From: a plasmid
DNA: 64,000 nucleotides
Direction: 5' to 3' (one strand)
Assembly (NCBI RefSeq): GCF_054482595.1
Contig: NZ_JBTHVH010000004.1
The notes below the pieces were generated by a model. That model had not been told where the DNA came from. It saw nothing but the letters and a program-made list of their open reading frames with translations, and searched no databases. The position numbers were made by a program, and so were the translations under genes. This document shows, piece by piece, positions 4,208 through 49,483 of the stretch; position 1 is the stretch's first letter, and the number at the start of each line of letters is the position of its first letter.

Positions 4208-5010
4208 CAACCCCAAGTCAGAGGGTCCAATCGCAGATAGAAGGCAAGGCGTTCGCGGTCGGGGGCTTCGATCCCCAATACATTGAATAGGACAGCGAAG
4301 GCGCGCTCTGCTTCATCTGGCGCTGCCCAGTTCTCTTCGGCGTTAGCAATCATGAGTGCCAAATCGGCATAGCGATCTGCTGTTCCGAGCCGCCCAAGGT
4401 CGATCAGACCCGTGCATTGAAGAGTTTTAGGGTCCACCATGAAGTTCGGCATGCAGGGATCACCATGGCAAACAACCATATCGGTGCGCTCTTGGTCGAG
4501 CCGCACCGGTAGCTCTCGTTCGACACGAGCCAAAAGATCGAGCTGCGGCGTACTCTTGTCCTCGTCCGGTAAGAAGTCGGGATTGACGGCATTGCGGGAC
4601 ACCACATCAACGGCGCGTCCGAACATTCGCGACAGCCTGCGCTCAAACGGACATTGATCAACCGATAGGCTGTGAACAGCGCCAAGTTGCTGCCCCATTG
4701 ACGGCCACGCTTTGAGCAAATCCGCTCCAGACAGATCAGCCGCCGGTACTCCCGGAATTGCCGTTATCACCAAGCATGCACCCTCCTGTTCCTCCTGCCA
4801 GTTGATCACCTCGGGGCAAGCCACACCTCGACCTTTGAGCCAAATGAGGCGGTCACGCTCTCCAGCGAGCTCACCGCGGCGGGAAGCAGGTGCGATTTTC
4901 GCGAAGGCATGCCCGTCACCACGTCGAAAAACAAAATCACCAGATTCTCCGCCTCTGACAGGCAACCAGTCAGAATGCGATTCACCAAAAAAAATATTAG
5001 TTCGATTCAA
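4207..5010 (-). CDS. strA: Aminoglycoside 3''-phosphotransferase APH(3'')-Ib
   Basis: Full StrA sequence (L/M)NRTNIFFGESHSDWLPVRGG…YLRLDPLTWG with a TTG start at 5008..5010. The longer ORF to 5196 is an upstream read-through. Confidence 0.93.
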   Translation of the reverse strand: MNRTNIFFGESHSDWLPVRGGESGDFVFRRGDGHAFAKIAPASRRGELAGERDRLIWLKGRGVACPEVINWQEEQEGACLVITAIPGVPAADLSGADLLKAWPSMGQQLGAVHSLSVDQCPFERRLSRMFGRAVDVVSRNAVNPDFLPDEDKSTPQLDLLARVERELPVRLDQERTDMVVCHGDPCMPNFMVDPKTLQCTGLIDLGRLGTADRYADLALMIANAEENWAAPDEAERAFAVLFNVLGIEAPDRERLAFYLRLDPLTWG

Positions 5011-5116
5011 TGGAGGTTCCTTCAGTTTTCTGATGAAGCGCGGAGGTGGCTCAACCTGCGAAAAGAAACGAGTTGCTATGGACTTGCACCGGTTGTGTTC
5101 CGGTCTATCTCTCATT

Positions 5117-5287
5117 TTAAGCGGCTTTTTTCTCAAATGCCACCGGCGATTTCCAGCCGAGTGTTGAATGTCTTCGGCGTGGATTATAAAAGCCATTTAC
5201 CCATATAATGCGCCTACTTATCAGCCTTTGGGACGTTGGGACGGTATTTTTCACTATATACCCCCAAGTTTTTAGACATGAAAAAAG
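5117..5287 (-). pseudogene. IS3-family (IS1133-like) transposase C-terminal remnant upstream of strA
   Basis: My reverse-strand translation gives …RRIIWVNGFYNPRRRHSTLGWKSPVAFEKKAA*, the conserved C-terminus of IS3-family OrfB. Its position immediately upstream of strA matches IS1133 in Tn5393. The rest was removed by IS1 at 5288. Confidence 0.55.
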
Positions 5288-5302
5288 GGTAATGACTCCA
5301 AC

Positions 5303-5806
5303 TTATTGATAGTGTTTTATGTTCAGATAATGCCCGATGACTTTGTCATGCAGCTCCACCGATTTTGAGAACGACAGCGACTTCCGTCCCAGCCGTGCCA
5401 GGTGCTGCCTCAGATTCAGGTTATGCCGCTCAATTCGCTGCGTATATCGCTTGCTGATTACGTGCAGCTTTCCCTTCAGGCGGGATTCATACAGCGGCCA
5501 GCCATCCGTCATCCATATCACCACGTCAAAGGGTGACAGCAGGCTCATAAGACGCCCCAGCGTCGCCATAGTGCGTTCACCGAATACGTGCGCAACAACC
5601 GTCTTCCGGAGCCTGTCATACGCGTAAAACAGCCAGCGCTGGCGCGATTTAGCCCCGACGTATCCCCACTGTTCGTCCATTTCCGCGCAGACGATGACGT
5701 CACTGCCCGGCTGTATGCGCGAGGTTACCGACTGCGGCCTGAGTTTTTTAAGTGACGTAAAATCGTGTTGAGGCCAACGCCCATAATGCGGGCTGTTGCC
5801 CGGCAT
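5303..5806 (-). CDS. insB: IS1 InsB' frame (expressed as InsAB' by -1 frameshift)
   Basis: 167-aa ORF overlapping the insA 3' end, with typical IS1 InsB sequence. Confidence 0.85.
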
Positions 5807-6000
5807 CCAACGCCATTCATGGCCATATCAATGATTTTCTGGTGCGTACCGGGTTGAGAAGCGGTGTAAGTGAACTGCAGTTGCCATGTTTTACGGCAGT
5901 GAGAGCAGAGATAGCGCTGATGTCCGGCGGTGCTTTTGCCGTTACGCACCACCCCGTCAGTAGCTGAACAGGAGGGACAGCTGATAGAAACAGAAGCCAC
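5725..6000 (-). CDS. insA: IS1 InsA
   Basis: 91-aa [45 protein letters not shown]…. Confidence 0.95.
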
Positions 6001-6055
6001 TGGAGCACCTCAAAAACACCATCATACACTAAATCAGTAAGTTGGCAGCATCACC

Positions 6056-6234
6056 CGACGCACTTTGCGCCGAATAAATACCTGTGACGGAAGATCACTT
6101 CGCAGAATAAATAAATCCTGGTGTCCCTGTTGATACCGGGAAGCCCTGGGCCAACTTTTGGCGAAAATGAGACGTTGATCGGCACGTAAGAGGTTCCAAC
6201 TTTCACCATAATGAAATAAGATCACTACCGGGCG
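6056..6234 (+). promoter_or_regulatory. Tn9 catA1 upstream/promoter remnant (catA1 itself absent)
   Basis: cgacgcactttgcgccgaataaatacctgtgacggaagatcacttcgcagaataaataaatcctggtgtccc… is the sequence between IS1 and catA1 in Tn9. It stops at …cactaccgggcg, where an IS10 end begins. Confidence 0.7.
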
Positions 6235-6793
6235 CTGAGAGATCCCCTCATAATTTCCCCAAAGCGTAACCATGTGTGAATAAATTTTGAGCTAGTAGGG
6301 TTGCAGCCACGAGTAAGTCTTCCCTTGTTATTGTGTAGCCAGAATGCCGCAAAACTTCCATGCCTAAGCGAACTGTTGAGAGTACGTTTCGATTTCTGAC
6401 TGTGTTAGCCTGGAAGTGCTTGTCCCAACCTTGTTTCTGAGCATGAACGCCCGCAAGCCAACATGTTAGTTGAAGCATCAGGGCGATTAGCAGCATGATA
6501 TCAAAACGCTCTGAGCTGCTCGTTCGGCTATGGCGTAGGCCTAGTCCGTAGGCAGGACTTTTCAAGTCTCGGAAGGTTTCTTCAATCTGCATTCGCTTCG
6601 AATAGATATTAACAAGTTGTTTGGGTGTTCGAATTTCAACAGGTAAGTTAGTTGCTAGAACCCATGGCTCCTTTGCCGACGCTGAGTAGATTTTAGGTGA
6701 CGGGTGGTGACAATGAGTCCGTGTCGAGCGCTGATTTTTTCGGCCTTTAGAGCGAGATTTATACAATAGAATTTGGCATGAGATTGGATTGCT
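6235..6793 (-). mobile_element. IS10 remnant (inside-end IR plus C-terminal part of the transposase)
   Basis: It starts CTGAGAGATCCCCTCATAATTTCCCCAAAG. ORF 6248..6766 is the IS10 transposase C-terminus (…LLVAATLLAQNLFTHGYALGKL), and the frame stays open up to the IS26 junction. Confidence 0.85.
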
Positions 6794-7613
6794 GGCACTG
6801 TTGCAAAGTTAGCGATGAGGCAGCCTTTTGTCTTATTCAAAGGCCTTACATTTCAAAAACTCTGCTTACCAGGCGCATTTCGCCCAGGGGATCACCATAA
6901 TAAAATGCTGAGGCCTGGCCTTTGCGTAGTGCACGCATCACCTCAATACCTTTGATGGTGGCGTAAGCCGTCTTCATGGATTTAAATCCCAGCGTGGCGC
7001 CGATTATCCGTTTCAGTTTGCCATGATCGCATTCAATCACGTTGTTCCGGTACTTAATCTGTCGGTGTTCAACGTCAGACGGGCACCGGCCTTCGCGTTT
7101 GAGCAGAGCAAGCGCGCGACCATAGGCGGGCGCTTTATCCGTGTTGATGAATCGCGGGATCTGCCACTTCTTCACGTTGTTGAGGATTTTACCCAGAAAC
7201 CGGTATGCAGCTTTGCTGTTACGACGGGAGGAGAGATAAAAATCGACAGTGCGGCCCCGGCTGTCGACGGCCCGGTACAGATACGCCCAGCGGCCATTGA
7301 CCTTCACGTAGGTTTCATCCATGTGCCACGGGCAAAGATCGGAAGGGTTACGCCAGTACCAGCGCAGCCGTTTTTCCATTTCAGGCGCATAACGCTGAAC
7401 CCAGCGGTAAATCGTGGAGTGATCGACATTCACTCCGCGTTCAGCCAGCATCTCCTGCAGCTCACGGTAACTGATGCCGTATTTGCAGTACCAGCGTACG
7501 GCCCACAGAATGATGTCACGCTGAAAATGCCGGCCTTTGAATGGGTTCATGTGCAGCTCCATCAGCAAAAGGGGATGATAAGTTTATCACCACCGACTAT
7601 TTGCAACAGTGCC
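6794..7613 (-). mobile_element. IS26 copy 1 (820 bp)
   Basis: GGCACTGTTGCAAAGTTAGCG… to …CGACTATTTGCAACAGTGCC. The flanks (ggattgct / acttgacc) show no 8-bp duplication. Confidence 0.97.
6846..7550 (-). CDS. tnpA: IS26 transposase Tnp26 (234 aa)
   Basis: [34 protein letters not shown]…RLVSRVFEM. Confidence 0.97.
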   Translation of the reverse strand: MNPFKGRHFQRDIILWAVRWYCKYGISYRELQEMLAERGVNVDHSTIYRWVQRYAPEMEKRLRWYWRNPSDLCPWHMDETYVKVNGRWAYLYRAVDSRGRTVDFYLSSRRNSKAAYRFLGKILNNVKKWQIPRFINTDKAPAYGRALALLKREGRCPSDVEHRQIKYRNNVIECDHGKLKRIIGATLGFKSMKTAYATIKGIEVMRALRKGQASAFYYGDPLGEMRLVSRVFEM

Positions 7614-7664
7614 ACTTGACCTGATAGTTTGGCTGTGAGCAATTATGTGCTTAGTGCATCTAAC
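7614..7664 (-). other. First ~50 bp of the class 1 integron 3'-conserved segment, truncated by IS26
   Basis: acttgacctgatagtttggctgtgagcaattatgtgcttagtgcatctaacg is the reverse complement of the start of the 3'-CS. qacEdelta1 and sul1 are absent. Confidence 0.6.
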
Positions 7665-7702
7665 GTCAAAATCAGCGGCGCGTTTTTATGCGTCCGCTGG
7701 AT

Positions 7703-8524
7703 TTACTTGTTGTGCGGCGTCGCAGACTCATTGAACAACCTTTTTGCCTGCGCAATTACAGTTCTCGGAAGCTCGATATTCAGAGGTTCTGTCACGCTCT
7801 TGAACAATTCGAGACTCCACGTCCACGTTTGATGATAGGCTGCACATAGTGCTCTTGGTTCTGCACTGCTTGTGCATGCCAGATAGCGATTATACGAGTC
7901 CTCCGAGATATCCTTTTCGAGCGCGCGTGAAGGTGTCGGCCAGTGGTCTGTTGCCCCTTCGTGGAGTCGAACCAGCTTGAGTAGGTTTTCATGTGCTTTG
8001 CTGAGCAAAGCCCAGGCGCGAGCGTACTCTCCCCGATTTAAAAGATTGGCCCCAAAGAGCATCAGGCTGATGAGGTTCAACACAAGCCCTTCCACCAGCG
8101 GCGCGCCTTCACGTATCGGGGGACCGCCCACGAGAGCGCTTGCGTACCTTGACAACTCTCCTGATCGGTCCAACAAAACAGCCGCCTCAAGCGAGGGAAA
8201 CCACCCATAGCCTTGCCAAGTGGAAATGACCGGTATGTCCGATTTTCGCATGAAATGGAATTCACCGCGAATGCCGTTTTCAAAAAGTGCGGTGTGGTGG
8301 CCGAAGTCGTCCGGAAAGTAAGCAGCAACCGGACTTACGGCATTAAGCCACGAGCGCTGATCGAAATTTTCAAAATGGTCATCCTGGATGAACACTGCGA
8401 ATTCGATATCAGAGAACTCGTCACCCTCTCCGATAGCAAATGAGCCGAACATCAATGCCGCGATTATTCGTGCATCCTCATGACAACCTTCCTTGAAGAG
8501 TTCGATCATTTTCAGTTGAAGCAT
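7703..8524 (-). CDS. lnu(F): Lincosamide nucleotidyltransferase Lnu(F) gene cassette
   Basis: 273-aa ORF MLQLKMIELFKEGCHEDARIIAALMFGSFAIGEGDEFSDIEF… sits in a cassette downstream of aadA2. Confidence 0.9.
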   Translation of the reverse strand: MLQLKMIELFKEGCHEDARIIAALMFGSFAIGEGDEFSDIEFAVFIQDDHFENFDQRSWLNAVSPVAAYFPDDFGHHTALFENGIRGEFHFMRKSDIPVISTWQGYGWFPSLEAAVLLDRSGELSRYASALVGGPPIREGAPLVEGLVLNLISLMLFGANLLNRGEYARAWALLSKAHENLLKLVRLHEGATDHWPTPSRALEKDISEDSYNRYLACTSSAEPRALCAAYHQTWTWSLELFKSVTEPLNIELPRTVIAQAKRLFNESATPHNK

Positions 8525-8596
8525 AGAAATATCCTTTTATTGAAGCCACAGATTATGAGGAAAGGTATACGCAGATTTTTGTTTTTTTTCGTCAGC

Positions 8597-8657
8597 ACAA
8601 CGCCGGAGTTAAGCCGCCGCGCGTAGCGCGGTCGGCTTGAACGAATTGTTAGACATT
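8597..8657 (-). repeat. attC of the aadA2 cassette (approximate)
   Basis: gtctaacaattcgttcaagccgaccgcgctacgcgcggcggcttaactccggcgtt on the minus strand is an imperfect palindrome typical of aadA attC sites. Confidence 0.5.
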
Positions 8658-9447
8658 ATTTGCCGATTACCTTGGTGATCTCGCCTTTCACGTAGTGGAC
8701 AAATTCTTCCAACTGATCTGCGCGCGAGGCCAAGCGATCTTCTTCTTGTCCAAGATAAGCCTGTCTAGCTTCAAGTATGACGGGCTGATACTGGGCCGGC
8801 AGGCGCTCCATTGCCCAGTCGGCAGCGACATCCTTCGGCGCGATTTTGCCGGTTACTGCGCTGTACCAAATGCGGGACAACGTAAGCACTACATTTCGCT
8901 CATCGCCAGCCCAGTCGGGCGGCGAGTTCCATAGCGTTAAGGTTTCATTTAGCGCCTCAAATAGATCCTGTTCAGGAACCGGATCAAAGAGTTCCTCCGC
9001 CGCTGGACCTACCAAGGCAACGCTATGTTCTCTTGCTTTTGTCAGCAAGATAGCCAGATCAATGTCGATCGTGGCTGGCTCGAAGATACCTGCAAGAATG
9101 TCATTGCGCTGCCATTCTCCAAATTGCAGTTCGCGCTTAGCTGGATAACGCCACGGAATGATGTCGTCGTGCACAACAATGGTGACTTCTACAGCGCGGA
9201 GAATCTCGCTCTCTCCAGGGGAAGCCGAAGTTTCCAAAAGGTCGTTGATCAAAGCTCGCCGCGTTGTTTCATCAAGCCTTACGGTCACCGTAACCAGCAA
9301 ATCAATATCGCTGTATGGCTTCAGGCCGCCATCCACTGCGGAGCCGTACAAATGCACGGCCAGCAACGTTGATTCCAGATGGCGCTCAATGACGCTTAGC
9401 ACCTCTGATAGTTGGTTCGAAATTTCGATGGTCACCGCTACCCTCAT
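8656..9447 (-). CDS. aadA2: Aminoglycoside (3'')(9) adenylyltransferase AadA2
   Basis: MRVAVTIEISNQLSEVLSVIERHLESTLLAVHLYGSAVDGGLKPYSDIDLL…GEITKVIGK. The 336-aa ORF in the track is an upstream extension through attI1. Confidence 0.92.
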   Translation of the reverse strand: MRVAVTIEISNQLSEVLSVIERHLESTLLAVHLYGSAVDGGLKPYSDIDLLVTVTVRLDETTRRALINDLLETSASPGESEILRAVEVTIVVHDDIIPWRYPAKRELQFGEWQRNDILAGIFEPATIDIDLAILLTKAREHSVALVGPAAEELFDPVPEQDLFEALNETLTLWNSPPDWAGDERNVVLTLSRIWYSAVTGKIAPKDVAADWAMERLPAQYQPVILEARQAYLGQEEDRLASRADQLEEFVHYVKGEITKVIGK

Positions 9448-9716
9448 GATGTCTAACTTTGTTTTAGGGCGACTGCCCTGCTGCGTAACATCGTTGCTGC
9501 TCCATAACATCAAACATCGACCCACGGCGTAACGCGCTTGCTGCTTGGATGCCCGAGGCATAGACTGTACCCCAAAAAAACAGTCATAACAAGCCATGAA
9601 AACCGCCACTGCGCCGTTACCACCGCTGCGTTCGGTCAAGGTTCTGGACCAGTTGCGTGAGCGCATACGCTACTTGCATTACAGCTTACGAACCGAACAG
9701 GCTTATGTCCACTGGG
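9448..9716 (-). promoter_or_regulatory. Class 1 integron attI1 with P2 (active, GGG insertion) and PcW promoters
   Basis: P2 reads TTGTTA-17 nt-TACAGT (9564..9592) with the GGG insertion. PcW reads TGGACA-17 nt-TAAGCT (9683..9711). Both are on the minus strand, reading into aadA2. Confidence 0.85.
9596..9716 (+). pseudogene. intI1: intI1, first ~40 codons only, truncated by IS26
   Basis: atgaaaaccgccactgcgccg… encodes [40 protein letters not shown] and then runs into the IS26 IR at 9717. Confidence 0.9.
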
Positions 9717-10536
9717 GGCACTGTTGCAAATAGTCGGTGGTGATAAACTTATCATCCCCTTTTGCTGATGGAGCTGCACATGAACCCATTCAAAGGCCGG
9801 CATTTTCAGCGTGACATCATTCTGTGGGCCGTACGCTGGTACTGCAAATACGGCATCAGTTACCGTGAGCTGCAGGAGATGCTGGCTGAACGCGGAGTGA
9901 ATGTCGATCACTCCACGATTTACCGCTGGGTTCAGCGTTATGCGCCTGAAATGGAAAAACGGCTGCGCTGGTACTGGCGTAACCCTTCCGATCTTTGCCC
10001 GTGGCACATGGATGAAACCTACGTGAAGGTCAATGGCCGCTGGGCGTATCTGTACCGGGCCGTCGACAGCCGGGGCCGCACTGTCGATTTTTATCTCTCC
10101 TCCCGTCGTAACAGCAAAGCTGCATACCGGTTTCTGGGTAAAATCCTCAACAACGTGAAGAAGTGGCAGATCCCGCGATTCATCAACACGGATAAAGCGC
10201 CCGCCTATGGTCGCGCGCTTGCTCTGCTCAAACGCGAAGGCCGGTGCCCGTCTGACGTTGAACACCGACAGATTAAGTACCGGAACAACGTGATTGAATG
10301 CGATCATGGCAAACTGAAACGGATAATCGGCGCCACGCTGGGATTTAAATCCATGAAGACGGCTTACGCCACCATCAAAGGTATTGAGGTGATGCGTGCA
10401 CTACGCAAAGGCCAGGCCTCAGCATTTTATTATGGTGATCCCCTGGGCGAAATGCGCCTGGTAAGCAGAGTTTTTGAAATGTAAGGCCTTTGAATAAGAC
10501 AAAAGGCTGCCTCATCGCTAACTTTGCAACAGTGCC
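9717..10536 (+). mobile_element. IS26 copy 2 (820 bp)
   Basis: Both IRs are intact. The flanks ccactggg / gtaaaggc show no duplication. Confidence 0.97.
9780..10484 (+). CDS. tnpA: IS26 transposase
   Basis: Identical 234-aa Tnp26. Confidence 0.97.
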   Translation: MNPFKGRHFQRDIILWAVRWYCKYGISYRELQEMLAERGVNVDHSTIYRWVQRYAPEMEKRLRWYWRNPSDLCPWHMDETYVKVNGRWAYLYRAVDSRGRTVDFYLSSRRNSKAAYRFLGKILNNVKKWQIPRFINTDKAPAYGRALALLKREGRCPSDVEHRQIKYRNNVIECDHGKLKRIIGATLGFKSMKTAYATIKGIEVMRALRKGQASAFYYGDPLGEMRLVSRVFEM

Positions 10537-10964
10537 GTAAAGGCGGCCTTATCCACCATTTCCCGAACAAGCAGGCGCTAATATTCGCCCTGTTCGCGCG
10601 TCTGCTGGCAATCATGGAAGAAGCGATTACCGCGCTGATGCAACAGGATGGCGTGAGCTATGGCCGGTTTACCCGCGCCTATCTGAACTATCTGGCGGAT
10701 CTCACGGACACCCATGAAAGCCGCCAGCTTATGGTTTTGTCGCTGGCAATGCCCGATGAACCGGTGCTGCGCAAATGCTGGCGCGACTGGATGCTGGAGA
10801 AACTGGCGCAGGGCGATGAGCTGGATAACAGCCCAACCGGCACGCTGGTGCGCTACGCCGCTGACGGCATCTGGCTTTCGGAGTTGACGGAAGGGATCAC
10901 CATGAGCGCCGACCACCGTCGCGCGCTGGTTGACTCCCTGAATAAAATGACGCTTCCCGCGTGA
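10537..10964 (+). pseudogene. TetR/AcrR-family regulator, C-terminal part only (orf3 of the fosA3 module)
   Basis: …GGLIHHFPNKQALIFALFARLL… is the end of the HTH region followed by the ligand domain. The apparent start codon lies inside IS26. Confidence 0.7.
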
Positions 10965-10983
10965 AGCACAGACTGAGGCCGCG

Positions 10984-11772
10984 ATGCGCTACAACATCAA
11001 TGCCCGTTTTATCTACGACGCCACCGACGGAACCCTGACGCTGCCGCAAAGCGATGAACCGGACAGCCAGCTATCCCTCACCGCCAGCGCCCTGTTTAAC
11101 TATTTTCTGCGCCATACCGAGATTGTCAGCCGGGAAGATGTTCTGAAAAAAGTCTGGGATGACAATGGATTAACCTCATCCAACAGCAATCTGAATCAGT
11201 ATCTCAGCATGCTGCGGAAGACCTTTCGCCATTACGGCGTCGATAACATCATCGTCACCGTCTCGCGCGGCTATTTGCAGCTTAATCCCGAGGTCATTAT
11301 CGAAGCGCTGGACGACGCGCCGCCGGTTTCACCACAACAGACGCCTGCCGAACCGCCGCCCGTTACGACAACGCCAGACGCACCGCGCTCCGCACATGCT
11401 CGCGGGATGTGCTGGTACATGGCCGGAGCCTGCTTGCTCACCATTGCCCTGCTTCTGGTTGCCTTCAGTCTGGTCGGCATCAGTGAATCCCAGCCTATCG
11501 CGCTGACCCGCCTCAGCCATAGCCAGTGCGAACTGCTGGCCAGCGATGAAATGCGACGTTCGGTCAGTGAAGAGTCCTACGGCAAAAACTTCGATGAGGT
11601 ACGCCAGCGGCTGAATATTGCCTGTAAACCCGGTGAACGTTTTCTTTTCTTCTACGGCGATCGGCTCGAAACCAACGGGCTGGGGCGCGTGTTCCTTGCC
11701 CACTGCGCCATGCATGAAGATAACCCGTTCAGCTATTGCGATAACTACTTTTACTACTCCTGGAAGCCGTAA
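10984..11772 (+). CDS. CadC/ToxR-like membrane-anchored winged-helix regulator
   Basis: It has an N-terminal OmpR/CadC-type wHTH (…LSMLRKTFRHYGVDNIIVTVSRGYLQL), a Pro-rich linker, one TM segment (WYMAGACLLTIALLLVAFSLV) and a C-terminal periplasmic domain. Confidence 0.6.
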   Translation: MRYNINARFIYDATDGTLTLPQSDEPDSQLSLTASALFNYFLRHTEIVSREDVLKKVWDDNGLTSSNSNLNQYLSMLRKTFRHYGVDNIIVTVSRGYLQLNPEVIIEALDDAPPVSPQQTPAEPPPVTTTPDAPRSAHARGMCWYMAGACLLTIALLLVAFSLVGISESQPIALTRLSHSQCELLASDEMRRSVSEESYGKNFDEVRQRLNIACKPGERFLFFYGDRLETNGLGRVFLAHCAMHEDNPFSYCDNYFYYSWKP

Positions 11773-12294: not shown

Positions 12295-12711
12295 TCAATC
12301 AAAAAAGACCATCCCCTTGTAGGGGCGTTCGCGACAGGCGGCCAGCCGCTGCGCCAGATTCCCCACATGCAGCTCCAGCTTATGGCCGTCAGGGTCGAGA
12401 AAATAGTAAGACGCCCCTTCACTGCGGTTATCTTTCCATACCTCAGCCCCCGCCTGCGCCAGCAGAGCCACCACCCCGGCAAACTCTTCTTCCGCCACGC
12501 TGAAGGCGTAGTGGGTATAGTCGCTTTCCTGAGGGGGCGTTTTACGCCGCTGCTCATCCAGCGACAAGCACAGCCACAGCGCCCCACAGGAGAGATAGGC
12601 TCCGCTATCCCAGCTGGCGTGCAGGCGCATTCCAGGTAACTGCTGATAAAATGCCAGGCTTGACGCCAGATCGCTGACCGCCAGCGTCAGATGATTCAAT
12701 CCCTGCAGCAT
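12295..12711 (-). CDS. fosA3: Fosfomycin glutathione transferase FosA3
   Basis: 138 aa, [56 protein letters not shown]…PYKGMVFFD. It sits in the IS26-bounded arrangement known for fosA3. Confidence 0.92.
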
Positions 12712-13033
12712 GACTTTTCCTCCCGTTATCAAACCCTGTTGTAAACTGTGATCGGCGACGCATCCCCTCCCGGCCTCACCTCATCACCGGCTAAAAAGCG
12801 CATTTTTTGCGTTTAGCCTGCCATCGGAAACCTGCGCCTCGCCACACTAATCCCCGCTCTATGTTACCCCTTTTTTGAAATCATTTAGCAATCCAATAAC
12901 ATTTCATCCCCCCGGAAAAAGCGGGCTAAAAATCGCCTTATTGAAGACCAAATCAGCACCGACATTACAGCATAAAGACATAAATAAACGCCCTAAAAAG
13001 ACTAAATCACAGAGCTATATCCTAAATAATTAC

Positions 13034-14594
<1,561 letters not shown>

Positions 14595-14703: not shown

Positions 14704-14741
14704 CTTAACGTGAGTTTTCGTTCCACTGAGCGTCAGACCCC
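14704..14741. repeat. Tn2/Tn3 right-end 38-bp IR (outer end at 14741)
   Basis: Reverse complement reads GGGGTCTGACGCTCAGTGGAACGAAAACTCACGTTAAG. Confidence 0.9.
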
Positions 14742-15355
14742 GTATATCGCTTGCTGATTACGTGCAGCTTTCCCTTCAGGCGGGATTCATACAGCGGCCA
14801 GCCATCCGTCATCCATATCACCACGTCAAAGGGTGACAGCAGGCTCAGAAGACGCTCCAGTGTGGCCAGAGTGCGTTCACCGAAAACGTGCGCCACAACT
14901 GTCCTCCGTATCCTGTCATACGCGTAAAACAGCCAGCGCTGACGTGATTTAGCACCGACGTAGCCCCACTGTTCGTCCATTTCAGCGCAGACAATCACAT
15001 CACTGCCCGGTTGTATGCGCGAGGTTACCGACTGCGGCCTGAGTTTTTTAAGTGACGTAAAACCGTGTTGAGGCCAACGCCCATAATGCGGGCAGTTGCC
15101 CGGCATCCAACGCCATTCATGGCCATATCAATGATTTTCTGGTGCGTACCGGGTTGAGAAGCGGTGTAAGTGAACTGCAGTTGCCATGTTTTACGGCAGT
15201 GAGAGCAGAGATAGCGCTGGTGTCCGGCAGTGCTTTTGCCGTTACGCACCACCCCGTCAGTAGCTGAACAGGAGGGACAGCTGATAGAAACAGAAGCCAC
15301 TGGAGCACCTCAAAAACACCATCATACACTAAATCAGTAAGTTGGCAGCATCACC
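14742..15355 (-). mobile_element. IS1 variant, truncated (614 bp; lacks ~154 bp of the insB end)
   Basis: It is collinear with IS1 at 5442..6055 but carries scattered substitutions, so it is a different IS1 isoform. It was interrupted by the Tn2 end. Confidence 0.9.
15025..15300 (-). CDS. insA: IS1 InsA (in the truncated copy)
   Basis: 91-aa ORF differing by one residue from the insA at 5725..6000. Confidence 0.85.
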
Positions 15356-15401
15356 CGATGCAGCTTTCGTCAATCATGACAGTTATGAGTTTTCCGGTTA
15401 C

Positions 15402-15725
15402 TTATCCATTTTTGCCAGCGTGTTCCGCAACATCTGTTTTACTGTTTACACAGCACTCTTCACGTAAGAATTCGATGATAGCTTCCAGTATTTCGTATTG
15501 AGAGACACACATGAGCGTTCGACTCTCCCGGTTTTGTGTGACGAGCCCTACTGATACCAGGGCTGAAATATGATGACTTAACGTTGATGAGGGAATGCCA
15601 AGCTGCTTTTGCAATTCACCTACAGGCAAACCTTGTTCTCCAGCTTTTACAAGATGTTTGAATATGAACAAACGGGTCGGGTGACCCAGCTCTTTTAGTG
15701 CTTTAGCTACTTCTTCCAGTTGCAT
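15402..15725 (-). CDS. ArsR/SmtB-family metalloregulator
   Basis: 107 aa containing …LGHPTRLFIFKHLVKAGEQGLPVGELQKQLGIPSSTLSHHISALVSVGLV…, with C-terminal cysteines (EECCVN). Confidence 0.8.
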   Translation of the reverse strand: MQLEEVAKALKELGHPTRLFIFKHLVKAGEQGLPVGELQKQLGIPSSTLSHHISALVSVGLVTQNRESRTLMCVSQYEILEAIIEFLREECCVNSKTDVAEHAGKNG

Positions 15726-15745
15726 GTGACAACCCTCTGTCTAAT

Positions 15746-15803
15746 GATATTTCGATAATACCAGAAATATCTTGACCAGAATTATATTTCGATTATTCTA
15801 GAA
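15746..15803. promoter_or_regulatory. Two tandem ArsR-type operator-like repeats in the divergent promoter region
   Basis: ATATTTCGATAATACCAGAAATAT (15746..15769; 7-bp arms ATATTTC/GAAATAT) is repeated as ATATTTCGATTATTCTAGAAA (15783..15803). Confidence 0.55.
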
Positions 15804-15830
15804 ACGTAGATTTTGTCAAGAGGGTTTAGT

Positions 15831-16964
15831 ATGAATAGTTGGATTTCTATGCTGCAAGATGCCGCAGAGATGTTTTTGTTTTTGGCCGTCGAGCTATCTT
15901 TGCTGTTTATTGTCATCAGTGCCGGTGTGAGCCTGATAAGGCAAAAGGTCCCGGACCATAAAATCCAGCAATTGATAGGGGCGAAAAAAGGAAAAGGCTA
16001 CCTGCTGGCCTCGTTGTTGGGAGCCGTTACCCCTTTCTGTAGTTGCTCAACAATTCCAATGCTACGAGGGTTGTTGTCGGCGAAAGCAGGGTTTGGTCCG
16101 ACACTCACTTTTTTGTTTGTTTCACCGTTGCTTAATCCCATTATCGTGGGGTTAATGTGGGTTACCTTTGGCTGGAAAGTAACTTTGTTGTACGCGATCA
16201 TCGCTGCCGGTGTCTCAGTCCTTGCCAGTATCGTATTGGATTTACTAGGATTTGAACGTCATATTGTTGATCACAAAAACTCAGCATCAAGTGGTTGCAC
16301 CACGAAATGCGATGATTCCGAAGCTTCGGTAAAAACGTCGGCGGGTTCCAGTTGTTGCAGCACTAGCTCGACTCAATTGCCTTTAAAAACGAGTTGCTGT
16401 ACTTCATCAGCGAACCCCATAATTAACTTAAGGACGGTAAAGAACGAGCAGAACGTATCAGCGTGTTGTTCATCAATATCATCTGAACAACCAGCTGTTA
16501 GCTGTTGCAGCAGCGAGAATCTGGGCAATGTGAATCTCACAACGAATACCACCTCTGGCCCAATAAAGTTAGCTATGAAAGATGCCTTACAGCAGTTTAA
16601 GGATGTTCTGCCTTATCTTTTGTTAAGTGTATTAATAGGTTCATTTATTTATGGCTTTATCCCTTCAGAGTGGATTGCAGCTCATGCCGGAGCAGATAAT
16701 CCCTTAGCCATACCGCTGAGTGCAGTTGTTGGTATTCCGTTGTATATCCGCGCAGAGGCAGTGATACCACTTGCATCAGTGCTGATGACTAAAGGAATGG
16801 GCCTGGGGGCATTAATGGCCTTGATAATCGGTAGTGCTGGAGCGAGTTTGACAGAAGTAATACTGCTTAAATCAATGTTCAGAATGCCTATGATAGTCGC
16901 TTTTCTGACAGTAATCCTGGGTATGGCCATACTTATGGGGTATCTGACCCAATTGCTTTTTTAA
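15831..16964 (+). CDS. COG0701/ArsP-like permease with a Cys/Ser-rich central loop
   Basis: It is a polytopic membrane protein with the vicinal-cysteine motif TPFCSCS. The central ~80-aa loop carries four CC dipeptides. The start is taken at MNSWISML, which follows an AGAGGG. Confidence 0.65.
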   Translation: MNSWISMLQDAAEMFLFLAVELSLLFIVISAGVSLIRQKVPDHKIQQLIGAKKGKGYLLASLLGAVTPFCSCSTIPMLRGLLSAKAGFGPTLTFLFVSPLLNPIIVGLMWVTFGWKVTLLYAIIAAGVSVLASIVLDLLGFERHIVDHKNSASSGCTTKCDDSEASVKTSAGSSCCSTSSTQLPLKTSCCTSSANPIINLRTVKNEQNVSACCSSISSEQPAVSCCSSENLGNVNLTTNTTSGPIKLAMKDALQQFKDVLPYLLLSVLIGSFIYGFIPSEWIAAHAGADNPLAIPLSAVVGIPLYIRAEAVIPLASVLMTKGMGLGALMALIIGSAGASLTEVILLKSMFRMPMIVAFLTVILGMAILMGYLTQLLF

Positions 16965-16980
16965 TAATAATAGTAAGGGT

Positions 16981-16988
16981 CTTCTGGT
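16981..16988. repeat. 8-bp target-site duplication of IS26 copy 4 (partner at 17809..17816)
   Basis: cttctggt lies immediately on both sides of the IS. Confidence 0.85.
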
Positions 16989-17808
16989 GGCACTGTTGCA
17001 AATAGTCGGTGGTGATAAACTTATCATCCCCTTTTGCTGATGGAGCTGCACATGAACCCATTCAAAGGCCGGCATTTTCAGCGTGACATCATTCTGTGGG
17101 CCGTACGCTGGTACTGCAAATACGGCATCAGTTACCGTGAGCTGCAGGAGATGCTGGCTGAACGCGGAGTGAATGTCGATCACTCCACGATTTACCGCTG
17201 GGTTCAGCGTTATGCGCCTGAAATGGAAAAACGGCTGCGCTGGTACTGGCGTAACCCTTCCGATCTTTGCCCGTGGCACATGGATGAAACCTACGTGAAG
17301 GTCAATGGCCGCTGGGCGTATCTGTACCGGGCCGTCGACAGCCGGGGCCGCACTGTCGATTTTTATCTCTCCTCCCGTCGTAACAGCAAAGCTGCATACC
17401 GGTTTCTGGGTAAAATCCTCAACAACGTGAAGAAGTGGCAGATCCCGCGATTCATCAACACGGATAAAGCGCCCGCCTATGGTCGCGCGCTTGCTCTGCT
17501 CAAACGCGAAGGCCGGTGCCCGTCTGACGTTGAACACCGACAGATTAAGTACCGGAACAACGTGATTGAATGCGATCATGGCAAACTGAAACGGATAATC
17601 GGCGCCACGCTGGGATTTAAATCCATGAAGACGGCTTACGCCACCATCAAAGGTATTGAGGTGATGCGTGCACTACGCAAAGGCCAGGCCTCAGCATTTT
17701 ATTATGGTGATCCCCTGGGCGAAATGCGCCTGGTAAGCAGAGTTTTTGAAATGTAAGGCCTTTGAATAAGACAAAAGGCTGCCTCATCGCTAACTTTGCA
17801 ACAGTGCC
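16989..17808 (+). mobile_element. IS26 copy 4 (820 bp), the only copy with a direct 8-bp duplication
   Basis: Both IRs are intact and flanked by cttctggt on each side. Confidence 0.97.
17052..17756 (+). CDS. tnpA: IS26 transposase
   Basis: Identical 234-aa Tnp26. Confidence 0.97.
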   Translation: MNPFKGRHFQRDIILWAVRWYCKYGISYRELQEMLAERGVNVDHSTIYRWVQRYAPEMEKRLRWYWRNPSDLCPWHMDETYVKVNGRWAYLYRAVDSRGRTVDFYLSSRRNSKAAYRFLGKILNNVKKWQIPRFINTDKAPAYGRALALLKREGRCPSDVEHRQIKYRNNVIECDHGKLKRIIGATLGFKSMKTAYATIKGIEVMRALRKGQASAFYYGDPLGEMRLVSRVFEM

Positions 17809-17919
17809 CTTCTGGTTTCATGTTGAACAAAGAAGACCCTTTAGCTTCTGTAATCCATTTAATCAGTCTGAATGAAATAGATTATAAATTCTGCTCTGCA
17901 TACCTGCTTAACCAAAGTC

Positions 17920-18324
17920 TCATGATTCTGATTGTCGGTACAGTGCCTGAATGTGGCATATCTGGGAGGTGCTGTACCCTGTTGCATCTGCCGTTTCTTT
18001 CTTGACCTGCCGGTAGTAAAGTACCTTTTGATGCCGTTCCTGAGCGACCTGTTTTCCCTGATATTTACCCAGCGTATGTGCGAGTTCAACTCCCTGCTTT
18101 TGGCGCTGGCGGTCAATTTGCTCGACCAGCAAAATATCATTGCGGTGACTGTCCATCAGTAAGCGACCCAGTTCCGGTCGGTCAAGTTTTGTACCGCTGA
18201 TATTCTCCCGGTAGTAACTGGCTATTTTATGCCCCCGCTCCTAAACAAACTGCTCCAGCATCTCTTTTGCCCGATCGGTGAACTGATCTTCCGTCTATGC
18301 CCTTAAATAAGTGCTGATGAACAT
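17920..18324 (-). pseudogene. tnpR: Serine resolvase (tnpR) pseudogene of a Tn3-family element
   Basis: My translation gives MFISTYLRA*TEDQFTDRAKEMLEQFV*ERGHKIASYYRENISGTKLDRPELGRLLMDSHRNDILLVEQIDR-QRQKQGVELAHTLGKYQGKQ… An amber codon sits at the catalytic Ser position (18295..18297) and a second stop lies at 18241..18243. About 50 aa appear to be missing after EQIDR. Confidence 0.75.
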
Positions 18325-18491
18325 TTTTTCACCGCATTACCGCATTTAGGTTATTGCATTTAATCTATCGCATATAGGCTATGTCGTTCATTGTGTGCCG
18401 TCACGTTTAGATTATGGTGTCAGGGTATACCCTTATGCGATAACCATTTTTGTTAAAAATAACGCATCGAATAATTTATGAGGAAAACTAT
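18325..18491. promoter_or_regulatory. res-like divergent region between tnpR and tnpA
   Basis: The region is AT-rich, with the 9-bp inverted pair TATCGCATA (18366..18374) / TATGCGATA (18434..18442) and several further CGCAT-containing half-sites. Confidence 0.45.
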
Positions 18492-21479
18492 ATGGCAAGG
18501 AGGCAGATTCTTTCTCTGTCGGAAAGAGAATCATTACTGGCATTACCGGACGATGAGTTAACGCTGACCCGAATGGCCTATTTCAGTGAGCATGATCTGG
18601 CGCTTATCAGTGCTCACCGTAAACCCGCCAGCCGTTTTGGTTTTGCCGTCCTTCTTTGCTATCTGAAAAATGTCGGCTTTGCCCCGGATAAAAAAATCTC
18701 TCCCTCTGATGCGCTGCTGAAGCATATCGCCAGCAGGCTAAAGCTTACCGGGGATCTCTGGCCTGCTTACCTTTCCGGCCGGGATACGACCCTGCGTGAG
18801 CATTTAACCGAACTGTACCGCTATCTTGGCGTAAAGGCGTTCACCGGCAAAATACAGCAGGACTGTATTACGCACCTGTTATCGATGGCGACGCGCACCG
18901 ATAAAGGCATTCTCCTAGCCGAAGAGTTACTTGTCTATCTCCGGCAGAACAACGTGATAATCCCCGCGATTGATGTCGTGGAGCGTACCTGTGCTGAAGT
19001 CATGGCAGGCGGCGATAAAATCGTATTTCAGACCCTGAATGCCCCGTTAACTCCGGCTCACAGGGATGCCCTGGATCATTTACTTGAGTCATCAGATAAT
19101 CAGCCTTCCAGGCTGACATGGCTTCTGCAACCGCCGGGTAAAATCAATGGTAAGAACGTGCTGCAACATCTTGATCGGCTCAGCAGCATTGAATCGCTGG
19201 CATTACCTGAAGGTATAGATCGTACCATTCACCAGAACCGGTTGCTGAAACTGGCGCGGGAAGGCCGAAAGATGAGTAGCCGGGATTTGACCCGATTTTC
19301 AGCTGCCCGGCGTCATGCGATCCTGGTGTGCGTGCTGGAAGAAGCCAGAGCCACACTGACAGACGAAGTGATTGAGCTGCATGAGCGAATGCTGAATAGT
19401 CTTTTCAGCAAAGCCAAACGAACACAGGCTGAGCGCCTTCAGCAGACCGGAAAGCTGATCCAGTCAAAACTGAGGCAGTACATCGATGTCGGTCAGGCGC
19501 TGTCTGATGCCCGTGATTCCGGTGGCGATCCCTGGCTCGCAATAGAAAACATACTCCCATGGGCTGAATTTGTCGCCAGTCTGGATGAAACACGCCATCT
19601 CGCCAGAAAAAATAATTTTGACCCGCTGCATATTATTACCGAGAAATACAGCACATTACGGAAATATGCCCCACGCATGTTGTCCGCTTTACAGTTAGTC
19701 GCAACCCCGGCAGCGCAACCTCTGGCTGATGCACTGGTTGTGATCAAGGATATGTACCGGAAGCAGTCACGTAAAGTTCCGGCGGCAGCGCCGCTTGAGT
19801 TTGTCCCTGAAAGCTGGCGCAAGGTGGTGATTACACCTGTGGGTATTGACCGGCAGTACTATGAGTTTTGTGCACTCAGCGAGCTTAAGGGGGCGTTGCG
19901 CTCCGGGGATATCTGGGTTAAAGGCTCGCGCCGCTACAAAAATTTTGATGATTACCTCATACCCGAGAAGGACTTTGACAAACTCACACCGGCACTGCCA
20001 CTGCCCGTATCTGCTGATTATCATGAGTACATTACCAGCCGTATGACCCTGCTTCAGTCCAGACTTGAAGAGGTCAATGCCATGGCTGCCCTTGGTGAAC
20101 TGCCCGATGTGGAAATATCCGACAGGGGCGTAAAAGTCTCTCCGCTGGATAACTGCGTTCCGGCGCAGGTTTCACCGCTGGCAGAGCTGGTTTACAGCAT
20201 GCTACCGCGACCTAAAATCACGGAAATTCTCGATGAGGTAAACAGCTGGACGACGTTTACCCGACATTTTTCGCATATAAAAAATGACATTACCCGTCCC
20301 GATACCCGCTTGCTCCTCACCACCATTCTTGCGGATGGCATCAATCTTGGCCTGACCAAAATGGCAGAAGCCTGCCCCGGGAGCACCAAATCATCACTCG
20401 AAGATATTCAGGCATGGTACATCCGTGACGAAACCTATTCAGCCGCTCTTGCAGAGCTGGTAAATGCGCAGGGGAAAAGACCGTTGGCGGCATTTTGGGG
20501 AGACGGAACAACGTCATCATCAGATGGACAAAATTTCAGAACCGGCAGCTCAGGCCGCTACGCAGGGCAGGTTAACCCGAAATATGGGCAAGAGCCTGGA
20601 CGTCAGTTTTATACCCATATTTCGGATCAATACAGCCCGTTTTACACCTGCATAATCAGTCGGGTCAGGGATTCAACCCATGTTCTCGATGGCTTGCTGT
20701 ACCACGAAAGCGACCTGGAAATCAGGGAACATTACACCGATACCGCTGGTTTCACCGATCATGTCTTTGCCCTGATGCATCTGTTGGGATTTGCGTTCTG
20801 TCCGCGAATCAGGGATCTCCACGACAAAAAACTGTTTATCAAAGGGAAAGCAGAGAAATACCCGGCGCTTCAGTCACTGATATCAACGACCAGCCTGAAT
20901 CTGAAAGAGATCGAAATCCACTGGCGTGAAGTGCTGCGTCTGGCAACCTCGATAAAGCAGGGAACCGTGACGGCATCCCTGATGCTGAAAAAGCTTGCCA
21001 GCTATCCCAAGCAAAACGGACTTGCCAAAGCACTGAGAGAAATTGGCCGCATTGAGCGAACCCTGTTTATGCTCGACTGGTTCCGCGACCCGGCTCTGCG
21101 TCGGCGGGTACAGGCGGGGCTGAATAAAGGCGAAGCCCGTAACGCGCTGGCGCGTGCGGTATTTATGCACCGACTGGGAGAAATCAGGGACAGAAAACCG
21201 GAAAATCAGAGCTATCGCGCCAGTGGACTGACGCTGCTGACGGCTGCCATATCCCTGTGGAATACCGTCTATATGGAAAGAGCGGTCGATGCCCTGAAGC
21301 GTAAAGGGGTGAAGATCAACGAGCAACTGCTGTCGCATTTGTCGCCGTTGGGCTGGGAACACATCAATCTGACAGGTGATTATATCTGGAAAAGCAACCG
21401 GATACCGGCTTCTGGTAAGTTTCGTCGGCTAAGACCAGCTAAAGTCGAAAGGTCAAAAAACAGCCTTAACGTACAATAA
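18492..21479 (+). CDS. tnpA: Tn3-family transposase, full length (995 aa)
   Basis: From [19 protein letters not shown] onward it aligns over its whole length with the Tn21-type TnpA at 59496..62447. The stop lies inside the terminal IR. Confidence 0.9.
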   Translation: MARRQILSLSERESLLALPDDELTLTRMAYFSEHDLALISAHRKPASRFGFAVLLCYLKNVGFAPDKKISPSDALLKHIASRLKLTGDLWPAYLSGRDTTLREHLTELYRYLGVKAFTGKIQQDCITHLLSMATRTDKGILLAEELLVYLRQNNVIIPAIDVVERTCAEVMAGGDKIVFQTLNAPLTPAHRDALDHLLESSDNQPSRLTWLLQPPGKINGKNVLQHLDRLSSIESLALPEGIDRTIHQNRLLKLAREGRKMSSRDLTRFSAARRHAILVCVLEEARATLTDEVIELHERMLNSLFSKAKRTQAERLQQTGKLIQSKLRQYIDVGQALSDARDSGGDPWLAIENILPWAEFVASLDETRHLARKNNFDPLHIITEKYSTLRKYAPRMLSALQLVATPAAQPLADALVVIKDMYRKQSRKVPAAAPLEFVPESWRKVVITPVGIDRQYYEFCALSELKGALRSGDIWVKGSRRYKNFDDYLIPEKDFDKLTPALPLPVSADYHEYITSRMTLLQSRLEEVNAMAALGELPDVEISDRGVKVSPLDNCVPAQVSPLAELVYSMLPRPKITEILDEVNSWTTFTRHFSHIKNDITRPDTRLLLTTILADGINLGLTKMAEACPGSTKSSLEDIQAWYIRDETYSAALAELVNAQGKRPLAAFWGDGTTSSSDGQNFRTGSSGRYAGQVNPKYGQEPGRQFYTHISDQYSPFYTCIISRVRDSTHVLDGLLYHESDLEIREHYTDTAGFTDHVFALMHLLGFAFCPRIRDLHDKKLFIKGKAEKYPALQSLISTTSLNLKEIEIHWREVLRLATSIKQGTVTASLMLKKLASYPKQNGLAKALREIGRIERTLFMLDWFRDPALRRRVQAGLNKGEARNALARAVFMHRLGEIRDRKPENQSYRASGLTLLTAAISLWNTVYMERAVDALKRKGVKINEQLLSHLSPLGWEHINLTGDYIWKSNRIPASGKFRRLRPAKVERSKNSLNVQ

Positions 21480-21502
21480 TTTTCGATATCCAAACTGACC
21501 CC
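21465..21502. repeat. 38-bp terminal IR of the unnamed Tn3-family element (outer end at 21502)
   Basis: Reverse complement reads GGGGTCAGTTTGGATATCGAAAATTATTGTACGTTAAG, which carries the GGGG…ACGnTAAG family signature. Confidence 0.8.
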
Positions 21503-21687
21503 GAATACAAGGACAATGCCGGTACCGCCTGATTACTTCTGGCGTCGTCTACAATGTTACTCCAGGCATATGCTGCGTCGTCCGGGGTTTGTTTTGGATC
21601 TATGTCCAATGTCGGCCAGACGTGGCCCTGATGATTCTTGCCCTTTGTACAGGAAGTGATTAAGTGTACTGAGCGTTCAGAGAACAT
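21503..21687 (-). pseudogene. N-terminal fragment of a gene cut by the Tn3-family insertion (possibly DUF6884-like)
   Basis: MFSERSVHLITSCTKGKN…AVPALSLYSGSVW then reads straight into the IR. The SCxxxK … A..LY.G pattern resembles DUF6884 as I recall it. Confidence 0.3.
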
Positions 21688-21832
21688 TATCTTCCTTACA
21701 TACCCATAGAACAGCTTTCTAAGAACGGTGGGCTCGGCTGAAAATTACAAATCAGCCCCTTTCACGGCATCATTTTGATTCTTCGCGTCTGCCCCAGTAA
21801 GATGACCGGTTTTCTGCATGACAGTGTTATTC

Positions 21833-22126
21833 CTAACAAACGCAACACAAAACCACGCCAGCCAGAGCAAATTTTTTCATTTGCTGCGTAAAGAGCCTAT
21901 TGTTTTCTCTTTTAAGCTTCGCCCACTCGTTACAGAGGGTAACATCATCAAGCGCTGTTATATGCTTCGCCTCACCTTCGACGATAACGGTATGGATACC
22001 GTATGCTGTAAATCTCATACTATTTTCCAGAACCCAGTTGCGGTATTCGTCGAGTCCACCTTCGGAACCGGTAGCTCTGCGCCACATTTCAATTTGCTTG
22101 TGTGATGGGTCAAGTGTACTTGTCAT
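21833..22126 (-). CDS. Hypothetical protein (97 aa)
   Basis: ORF only, with no recognisable motif. It is transcribed divergently from the 22769 operon. Confidence 0.4.
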   Translation of the reverse strand: MTSTLDPSHKQIEMWRRATGSEGGLDEYRNWVLENSMRFTAYGIHTVIVEGEAKHITALDDVTLCNEWAKLKRENNRLFTQQMKKFALAGVVLCCVC

Positions 22127-33448: not shown

Positions 33449-33486
33449 GGGGAGCCCGCAGAATTCGGAAAAAATCGTACGCTAAG
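33449..33486. repeat. Tn1721 38-bp IR (outer end at 33449)
   Basis: GGGGAGCCCGCAGAATTCGGAAAAAATCGTACGCTAAG. Confidence 0.9.
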
Positions 33487-49450: not shown

Positions 49451-49483
49451 TGCCTCCTGCTGTGGTGGATGACTATCTCCCGG

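Follow-up and report, generated by a model that had tools for sequence, protein, structure and literature searches.

Remnant of a widespread Tn3-family transposon, lacking its left end, with an inactivated resolvase gene and arsR/permease cargo on an IncHI2 resistance plasmid

We analyzed positions 15356–21502 of a 64,000-nt stretch of plasmid DNA, hereafter the window. The features that a first-pass annotation had described from the sequence were all found where it had placed them, and its observation stands. The region and its immediate borders comprise the following:

14704–14741: Tn2/Tn3-type inverted repeat, which abuts and cuts IS1
14741/14742–15355, minus strand: IS1 fragment retaining 615 of 768 bp, with the Tn2/Tn3-type repeat on its far side
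15402–15725, minus strand: arsR-like gene for a 107-aa ArsR/SmtB-family regulator (NF033788, HTH_20, HTH_5), transposon cargo
15831–16964, plus strand: gene for a 377-aa ArsP-family permease (Pfam ArsP_1) with a Cys/Ser-rich insert, cargo
3′ of the permease gene: hairpin AAGGGTCTTC...GAAGACCCTT, which spans the IS26 insertion site
16989–17808, plus strand: IS26, with the 8-bp duplication CTTCTGGT at 16981–16988 and 17809–17816
17920–18324, minus strand: tnpR pseudogene, its lesions defined by alignment to intact relatives, annotated by PGAP as a pseudogene with an internal stop
18325–18491: res-like spacer between tnpR and tnpA, with repeated TATCGCATA / ACCGCATT / TATGCGATA motifs
18492–21479, plus strand: tnpA, an intact gene for a 995-aa Tn3-family transposase, identified by profile matches
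21465–21502, minus strand: 38-bp right terminal inverted repeat (IRR), GGGGTCAGTTTGGATATCGAAAATTATTGTACGTTAAG; the same repeat bounds complete copies
21503–21507: GAATA, the presumed surviving copy of a 5-bp target duplication in the IncHI2 backbone

TnpA is a Tn3-family transposase of the ~1000-aa DDE type. It scored 1128 bits against the Tn3 transposase model NF033527 (cutoff 500), spanning positions 2–954 of the 954 in the profile, and also matched Pfam DDE_Tnp_Tn3 and DUF4158. The IRR has the length (~38 bp), the GGGG start and the TAAG end of the family's terminal repeats. It occurs once in the window, where none is expected by chance. Both tnpA and this repeat are intact, as had been noted at first pass, and no matching left repeat (IRL) occurs anywhere in the 64,000 nt, again in agreement with the earlier reading.

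The divergent tnpR has been inactivated several times over. In a single frame it reads MFISTYLRA(stop)TEDQ...EQFV(stop)ERGH...EQIDR/QRQKQ..., the slash marking a deletion. Alignment to intact relatives placed the first stop at the catalytic Ser10 (TCG to TAG, 18295–18297) and the second at Gln28 (CAG to TAG, 18241–18243), 18 codons beyond it. These two stops were correctly read at first pass; the deletion of ~50 aa reported with them is in fact an in-frame loss of 222 bp (74 codons) after EQIDR, with its junction near 18108/18109, and is accompanied by a second deletion of 12 bp (4 codons). The lesions were the same in every copy examined. Of a resolution module consisting of res and a functional recombinase, the element therefore keeps the res-like spacer, which is ~90% identical to that of relatives with an intact tnpR, together with a tnpR that carries two nonsense codons and is short of 78 codons overall. 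A dead tnpR is no bar to membership of the Tn3 family, some accepted members of which also lack a resolvase.

The 3′ part of the pseudogene had no relative above about 80–85% identity in PLSDB or the complete E. coli genomes, and matched only short fragments in a large protein collection. We considered whether this part derives from a different element, which would make tnpR a hybrid gene. This idea is unnecessary, as the two intact relatives differ from each other just as much at the 3′ end. No ancestor combining an intact tnpR with the arsR/permease cargo was found in PLSDB, the complete E. coli genomes or the protein collection.

A search for intact relatives recovered the IRL in complete copies of the element, and an intact tnpR in relatives with other cargo. 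The complete element is 6.4 kb long and is ordered IRL, 269 bp, IS1, arsR, permease gene, dead tnpR, res, tnpA and IRR. An IRL identical to the IRR of the window was present in the complete copies L006, L008, L011 and L021. The copy in L006 (NZ_CP080128.1, locus 4925–11318) is 6394 bp and is flanked by the 5-bp duplication TTCTC, and that in L011 is 6391 bp and is flanked by TAAAA. Each of these two plasmids has the other's insertion site empty. Its insertions thus carry the 5-bp target duplication of the family. As the two copies lie at different sites with their own duplications, the resolvase-dead, IS1-bearing element has moved as a unit at least twice. An in-place inversion of the L006 copy was rejected as the origin of the L011 copy, since the latter was inserted separately and is flanked by a duplication of its own. 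Further distinct junctions were GAATA in IncHI2, AAAAA, AGATA and that of one chromosomal copy. The last of these (L022) was not counted as a proven insertion, its flanks being TAAAT and AAATA with no clean 5-bp duplication. Together, these data show the region studied to be what remains, on the right-hand side, of a widespread Tn3-family transposon, a genuine but for the most part ordinary component of an IncHI2 resistance plasmid. More specifically, it very probably consists of the rightmost 5.3 kb of a 6.4-kb transposon from the TnEc1/Tn6901 group, together with an IS26 that inserted later. On grounds of parsimony, tnpR would have decayed before the element spread. The insertions could have been made by TnpA itself or catalyzed in trans by a related transposase.

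In the usual Tn3-family route, TnpA would act on the two 38-bp repeats in a replicative transposition that generates the 5-bp target duplication. Since the element's own resolvase is destroyed, the resulting cointegrates would have to be resolved in some other way. Recombination by host RecA between the two 6.4-kb copies would be the likeliest route. Judging from Tn3, tnpA would also be freed from repression once TnpR is lost. It is possible, though on the unlikely side, that a TnEc1/Tn6901-type resolvase acting in trans on the retained res, and not RecA, resolves the cointegrates. The similarity of the spacer to that of the intact-tnpR relatives is consistent with such a role, as are the frequency of these relatives in the same hosts (106 plasmids in the literature) and the position of both complete copies within the remnant of a related element. 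However, the tnpR of this neighboring remnant also appears fragmented, being predicted in L021 as genes of 55 and 65 aa, and the window holds no compatible resolvase. Its sole other serine recombinase (49484–50056, minus strand), put forward at first pass as a partner for res, is only 25% identical to the resolvase of this family and is unlikely to act there.

Because both deletions are multiples of three, the helix-turn-helix end of tnpR is still in frame, and it might yield a protein that binds DNA at res and controls tnpA while carrying out no recombination. The corresponding ORF encodes 78 aa from an internal Met (17920–18156); some records list a 109-aa version, and products of 78–109 aa are called by gene finders and in NCBI records alike. 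Nevertheless, we judge such a protein quite improbable: the ORF has no Pfam match, the chance of two in-frame deletions together is about 1 in 9, and the copies carry no sequence variation by which purifying selection could be gauged. A broader scenario is that a resolvase-dead Tn3-family transposon is now among the commoner elements of farm-origin E. coli and Salmonella plasmids, in which loss of TnpR may derepress the transposase, the in-frame helix-turn-helix stub might bind res, and RecA or the resolvases of related elements would resolve the products. Taken as a whole, this scenario is unlikely.

Profile searches also characterized the two cargo genes. The ArsR-like protein scored 63 bits against NF033788 (cutoff 55) and matched HTH_20 and HTH_5. 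The permease scored 180 bits against ArsP_1 (PF03773; cutoff 32.3) and did not reach the cutoffs set for related efflux models in NCBIfam. It contains TPFCSCS, which we take to be the conserved cysteine motif of ArsP. The genetic context is also that of an ars locus, with a divergent ArsR regulator and, in L005, an adjoining arsH. In Campylobacter jejuni, ArsP is a permease for the efflux of organoarsenicals (PMC6205960). The permease of the window resembles this protein in its ArsP_1 match, its ArsR-family partner and the arsH neighbor of the non-transposon copies, and differs from it by a long Cys/Ser-rich insert. Efflux of trivalent organoarsenicals, as by the C. jejuni protein, is the predicted function.

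The arsR/permease pair had been assigned at first pass to the same mobile unit as tnpR-tnpA, and the complete copies bear this out: in L006 and L011, the pair lies between IRL and IRR, within perfect 5-bp duplications at two different sites. Moreover, the corresponding place downstream of tnpR is occupied by different cargo in relatives. Against these data, there is very little likelihood that the pair is flanking plasmid DNA joined to a transposon stump by rearrangement, even though diverged alleles (90–98% identity) occur outside any transposon, beside arsH and a ProQ/FinO gene on IncF and IncC/N plasmids, the homology to those plasmids ends at the permease stop codon, and the IS1 beside arsR lacks a duplication.

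Among 5426 complete E. coli genomes, 145 had the pseudogene junction, as did 247 PLSDB plasmids. There is practically no chance that the stops and deletions are sequencing or assembly errors concealing an intact resolvase, a reading for which we found no supporting point: a 675-bp stretch comprising the pseudogene and res is exactly identical in four independently sequenced plasmids (L003, L006, L007 and L011) and is matched at 99–100% identity by about 250 PLSDB plasmids and 157 E. coli records in RefSeq, PGAP annotates the internal stop, and a 222-bp deletion is atypical of read errors. The occurrence of the same stops in independent assemblies, together with the PGAP pseudogene flag, indicates that they are genuine, so the earlier claim of decay survives this check.

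At first pass, the inverted repeat had not been recognized as that of a named transposon. A literature search with the 38-bp repeat sequence indeed returned no match; the name TnEc1 was reached through cluster annotations and papers that mention it. The structure in the window has already been labelled ΔTnEc1 in a paper on IncHI2 plasmids (PMC8920835), and the repeat is identical to the right repeat of a relative that carries frmRAB. TnEc1 is the name given in ISfinder to an E. coli element of the Tn3 family, which has been described as having a working resolvase and no cargo. It shares with the window element the gene order, in which tnpR diverges from tnpA with res between them, and, according to the literature, has near-identical terminal repeats. 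PGAP names the TnpA of the window only 'Tn3 family transposase'; this protein is 91% identical to those named 'TnEc1 family transposase', suggesting that the element is a relative of TnEc1 and probably not the same element. Unlike TnEc1, which consists of tnpR and tnpA only, the complete copies carry arsR, the permease gene and IS1 between IRL and tnpR, and their tnpR is dead.

A second set of relatives comprises the formaldehyde-resistance (frmR-frmA-gloA-frmB) Tn3-family transposons known in the literature as Tn6901, Tn6399 and Tn7489. A complete 6901-bp copy that fits this description (L002) has a right 38-bp repeat identical to that of the window and a left repeat that differs by one base. 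Its TnpA is 96.7% identical and its tnpA-res DNA 94.5% identical to those of the window element. Residues 1–72 of its TnpR are 93% identical, whereas identity falls to only about 80% in the 3′ part of tnpR. The two elements also share the position of the cargo, downstream of tnpR. By contrast, the cargo itself differs (frmR-frmA-gloA-frmB versus arsR and the ArsP-type permease), the left-end sequences are unrelated beyond about 49 bp, and the resolvase of the window element is inactivated.

Elements of the IS1071/Tn1071 type and other resolvase-less members of the Tn3 family also have Tn3-family transposases and 38-bp-class inverted repeats, and move without a resolvase of their own, host or other functions separating the cointegrates. 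They have neither tnpR nor res, either by design or because both were lost long ago. The window element differs in that it keeps a recognizable tnpR pseudogene and res, and in that its transposase belongs to the Tn3/TnEc1 branch.

The comparison with complete copies also revised the history of the left end. The first-pass annotation took the partial IS1 to have cut the element. However, the same IS1, with the same IS1/arsR junction, is present in L006, L008 and L011, and is therefore a resident of the complete 6.4-kb element. The IS1 lacks a target duplication of its own within the element, so the DNA on its two sides may originally not have been contiguous. The window copy is missing IRL, the 269 bp and 153 bp of IS1; its left 420 bp were lost because the resident IS1 was cut by a Tn2 end. 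Since the left end is lost, the partner copy of GAATA is also absent. Throughout the window, we found neither the 269-bp left end nor the left half of the interrupted backbone gene. An empty IncHI2 target site (...ACCTGAATACAAGG...) is present in pSTm-A54650. In a search with a chimeric query, no record had the left junction at the IncHI2 site; an apparent 12-bp extension in the top matches came from a different flank that resembled the query by chance.

IS26 inserted late, into the stretch that separates the cargo from tnpR. The sibling plasmids L006 and L003, which lack this IS26, run uninterrupted through the site with a single CTTCTGGT, consistent with the earlier reading of a clean 8-bp duplication with contiguous flanks. 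The same duplication has been described beside ΔTnEc1 in an IncHI2 plasmid (PMC8920835). The events at this site would begin with insertion of the element into the IncHI2 backbone at GAATA. Loss of IRL, the 269 bp and part of IS1 would have followed, probably through Tn2 insertion into IS1 and an IS26-associated deletion, with IS26 landing between cargo and tnpR. With its left end gone, the window copy is no longer capable of normal two-ended transposition. What persists is a fixed remnant at the edge of the resistance region that still encodes a transposase and retains one inverted repeat.

The main value of these findings lies in annotation and plasmid archaeology. The remnant marks where the IncHI2 multiresistance region ends on its right, and the surviving GAATA junction gives the point of the original insertion. 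What papers have drawn as 'hp-hp-IS26-ΔTnEc1' is one transposon with an arsR and ArsP-type cargo pair. Organoarsenical additives in the feed of poultry and pigs might plausibly have selected for this pair. Work on tnpR mutants, and the existence of family members that have no resolvase, had in principle already made movement without a dedicated resolvase known; the two duplication-flanked insertions provide a mildly notable natural case of a Tn3-family element moving without its own resolvase.

Reading of 15000-22000 recovered every feature named in the first-pass annotation. With the adjoining 14704-14741, the layout is:

14704-14741: Tn2/Tn3-type 38-bp IR, beside the truncated blaTEM and butted on the cut IS1
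15355: IS1 end, ~615 of 768 bp present, far side adjoining the Tn2/Tn3-type IR
15402-15725, minus: ArsR/SmtB-family gene, divergent from the permease gene
15831-16964: permease gene, 377 aa, Pfam ArsP_1
16989-17808: IS26, flanked on both sides by CTTCTGGT
17920-18324, minus: tnpR pseudogene
18492-21479: Tn3-family transposase gene tnpA, 995 aa, NCBIfam model matched end to end
21502: element terminus, 38-bp IR GGGGTCAGTTTGGATATCGAAAATTATTGTACGTTAAG, single occurrence in the window, 0 expected by chance

In agreement with that annotation, tnpA and the 38-bp IR were intact. The permease has a long insert rich in Cys and Ser, at about residues 160-245, and its gene differs in length among alleles (359 aa in pSMS35_130 versus 377 aa in the window). 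The cargo resembles a module for organoarsenical efflux.

The tnpR lesions were defined by aligning the window gene with those of the two intact-tnpR relatives recovered: L001, E. coli pFG31-1-76kb, and L002, an Edwardsiella plasmid holding a complete 6901-bp transposon. Four lesions were found: TAG in place of TCG at Ser10, where the motif YLRASTEDQ places the catalytic serine; TAG in place of CAG at codon 28; an in-frame 222-bp deletion that removes residues 73-146; and a 12-bp deletion. The resolvase gene is dead, as first proposed, and the initial estimate of a ~50-aa deletion was too low. A single reading frame runs throughout the pseudogene. Its in-frame C-terminal end forms an ORF of 78 aa starting at an internal Met (17920-18156, minus), for which a Pfam search returned no match; in some database records, products of 80-109 aa labelled 'recombinase family' are annotated from this region. 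Identity to the relatives was 91-94% in the 5' part of tnpR and ~80-85% in the 3' part. Because L001 and L002 are equally diverged from each other in the 3' part, a hybrid origin of tnpR is unneeded.

The 675 bp spanning the pseudogene and res, the tnpR-tnpA spacer (18325-18491), were identical in four other plasmids, and the pseudogene junction was found in 247 PLSDB plasmids and 145 of 5426 complete E. coli genomes. In the PGAP annotation, tnpR is a pseudogene containing an internal stop. The lesions are therefore real, and the stops are not sequencing errors.

The full unit occurs in pPK8568-122kb (L006, NZ_CP080128.1), where 6394 bp comprising IRL, 269 bp, a complete IS1, arsR, the permease gene, dead tnpR, res, tnpA and IRR are flanked by the 5-bp duplication TTCTC; IRL and IRR are identical in sequence. 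Intact relatives, recommended for comparison at the outset, had supplied an undamaged tnpR for alignment (L001, L002), and L006 supplied the left IR. A 6391-bp copy in pPK8217-139kb (L011), 99.7% identical to the L006 unit, is flanked by TAAAA. The arsR/permease pair lies within the boundaries of both duplication-flanked copies, which bears out its proposed membership of the tnpR-tnpA unit. The proposed contiguity of the DNA on either side of IS26 also held: in the IS26-free plasmids L006 and L003, the insertion site is uninterrupted and carries only one CTTCTGGT. A terminator-like hairpin spans this site.

The L006 and L011 insertion sites are ~85 bp apart, the copies are oppositely oriented, and each plasmid is empty at the site occupied in the other. 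The separate duplications and reciprocal empty sites therefore indicate that the IS1-bearing, resolvase-dead unit transposed twice independently. Both copies lie inside the same related Tn3-family remnant (L006 4200-4924 and 11319-11400; L011 8875-9011 and 15403-15650) on plasmids with a P1-like backbone, one insertion being in the res region and the other in the truncated tnpA. This shared target hints at a preference for related res/tnpA DNA. Junctions at further loci were as follows:

GAATA: IncHI2 backbone; window, L007, L012 and others
AAAAA: beside the H-NS/topB region; L003, L014, L020
AGATA: beside a BREX locus; L008
Chromosomal copy L022: E. coli E47 chromosome NZ_CP121151.1, 4366-8762; no clean duplication

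The L022 flanks, TAAAT and AAATA, show a one-base offset, not a clean 5-bp duplication, and its tnpA has an internal deletion.

Rightward of the window IR is IncHI2 backbone, and the empty site ...ACCTGAATACAAGG... occurs in an IncHI2 plasmid with an uninterrupted target gene. No PLSDB record held a left junction matching this site. A search of the window did not find IRL, already reported as missing, the element's 269-bp left end or the interrupted gene's left half; so the window copy lost 420 bp from the left side of the element, together with neighbouring backbone. With one IR only, it cannot undergo ordinary transposition. The IS1 had been proposed to cut the left end. However, IS1 is resident in the complete L006 element, the Tn2 end sits within the window IS1 and, upstream, blaTEM is truncated by IS26; therefore the IS1 belongs to the element and was itself cut, rather than being what cut the element. 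Further upstream, an ORF that we take to be fosA3 (12295-12732, minus) is followed by the IS26 (~13034-13853) responsible for truncating blaTEM (13857-14594) at its 5' end.

Comparison of flanks in the complete copies revealed no target duplication of the internal IS1's own. This IS1 has probably brought about a deletion or recombination next to it, which means that the ancestral cargo may once have comprised more than the present pair. Diverged alleles of the pair occur elsewhere outside any transposon, with arsH adjoining. The 269-bp left-end sequence is also present in an Enterobacter IncFIB plasmid (L009, NZ_CP059424.1, 5001-5400), in which an IS110-family element interrupts IRL and the sequence runs beyond the point of IS1 insertion, into unrelated DNA; L009 may preserve the pre-IS1 state. 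A second, complete IS1 in the window (5288-6055) is 96.9% identical to the resident one and thus represents another variant. Several additional transposon ends or stumps in the window are indicated by five more 38-bp IRs of Tn3-family type:

1117-1154, minus: presumably Tn5393-like
3265-3302, plus: presumably Tn5393-like
33449-33486, plus: presumably Tn1721/Tn21-type
37585-37622, plus: presumably Tn2/Tn3-like
59463-59500, plus

The suggested absence of this IR from named transposons was not upheld. The protein cluster containing the window TnpA also holds entries named by PGAP 'Tn3-like element TnEc1 family transposase', to which it is 91% identical; identity to the L002 and L001 transposases is 96.7% and 96.8%, respectively. 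In IncHI2 plasmids, an 'IS26 upstream of ΔTnEc1' was described in 2022 (PMC8920835), together with the 8-bp duplication CTTCTGGT and, nearby, a blaTEM-IS1 segment; this is the structure in the window. According to a preprint (10.1101/2022.09.12.507718), TnEc1 lacks cargo, and frmRAB-carrying relatives are named Tn6901, Tn6399 and Tn7489. L002 fits the latter type. The element thus belongs to this known group, from which its cargo and its decayed resolvase set it apart. Our literature search found no paper on the arsR/permease form in its complete state or on the inactivated tnpR.

Overall, the transposase gene of the element is intact, as are the IRs of complete copies; 5-bp duplications are present at two sites, and the tnpR lesions are identical in all copies examined. 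Parsimony suggests that tnpR decayed before the element spread. According to established Tn3 biology, replicative transposition would generate cointegrates. Without TnpR, these should persist unless the two copies undergo RecA recombination; alternatively, a compatible resolvase might act on the retained res. Loss of TnpR should also derepress tnpA. Identity of the res spacer to that of the intact relatives is ~90%, and motifs of the TATCGCATA type recur within it. The window encodes just one other serine recombinase (49484-50056, minus), which is 25% identical to the element family's resolvase and is unlikely to substitute for it. This intact 190-aa protein is encoded beside a 464-aa transposase ORF (48056-49450; region 48056-50056, minus), and annotation of the sibling plasmid p3M-23 names the two a recombinase family protein and ISKpn19. 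The element provides natural evidence, mildly interesting, that a resolvase-dead Tn3-family transposon kept transposing.
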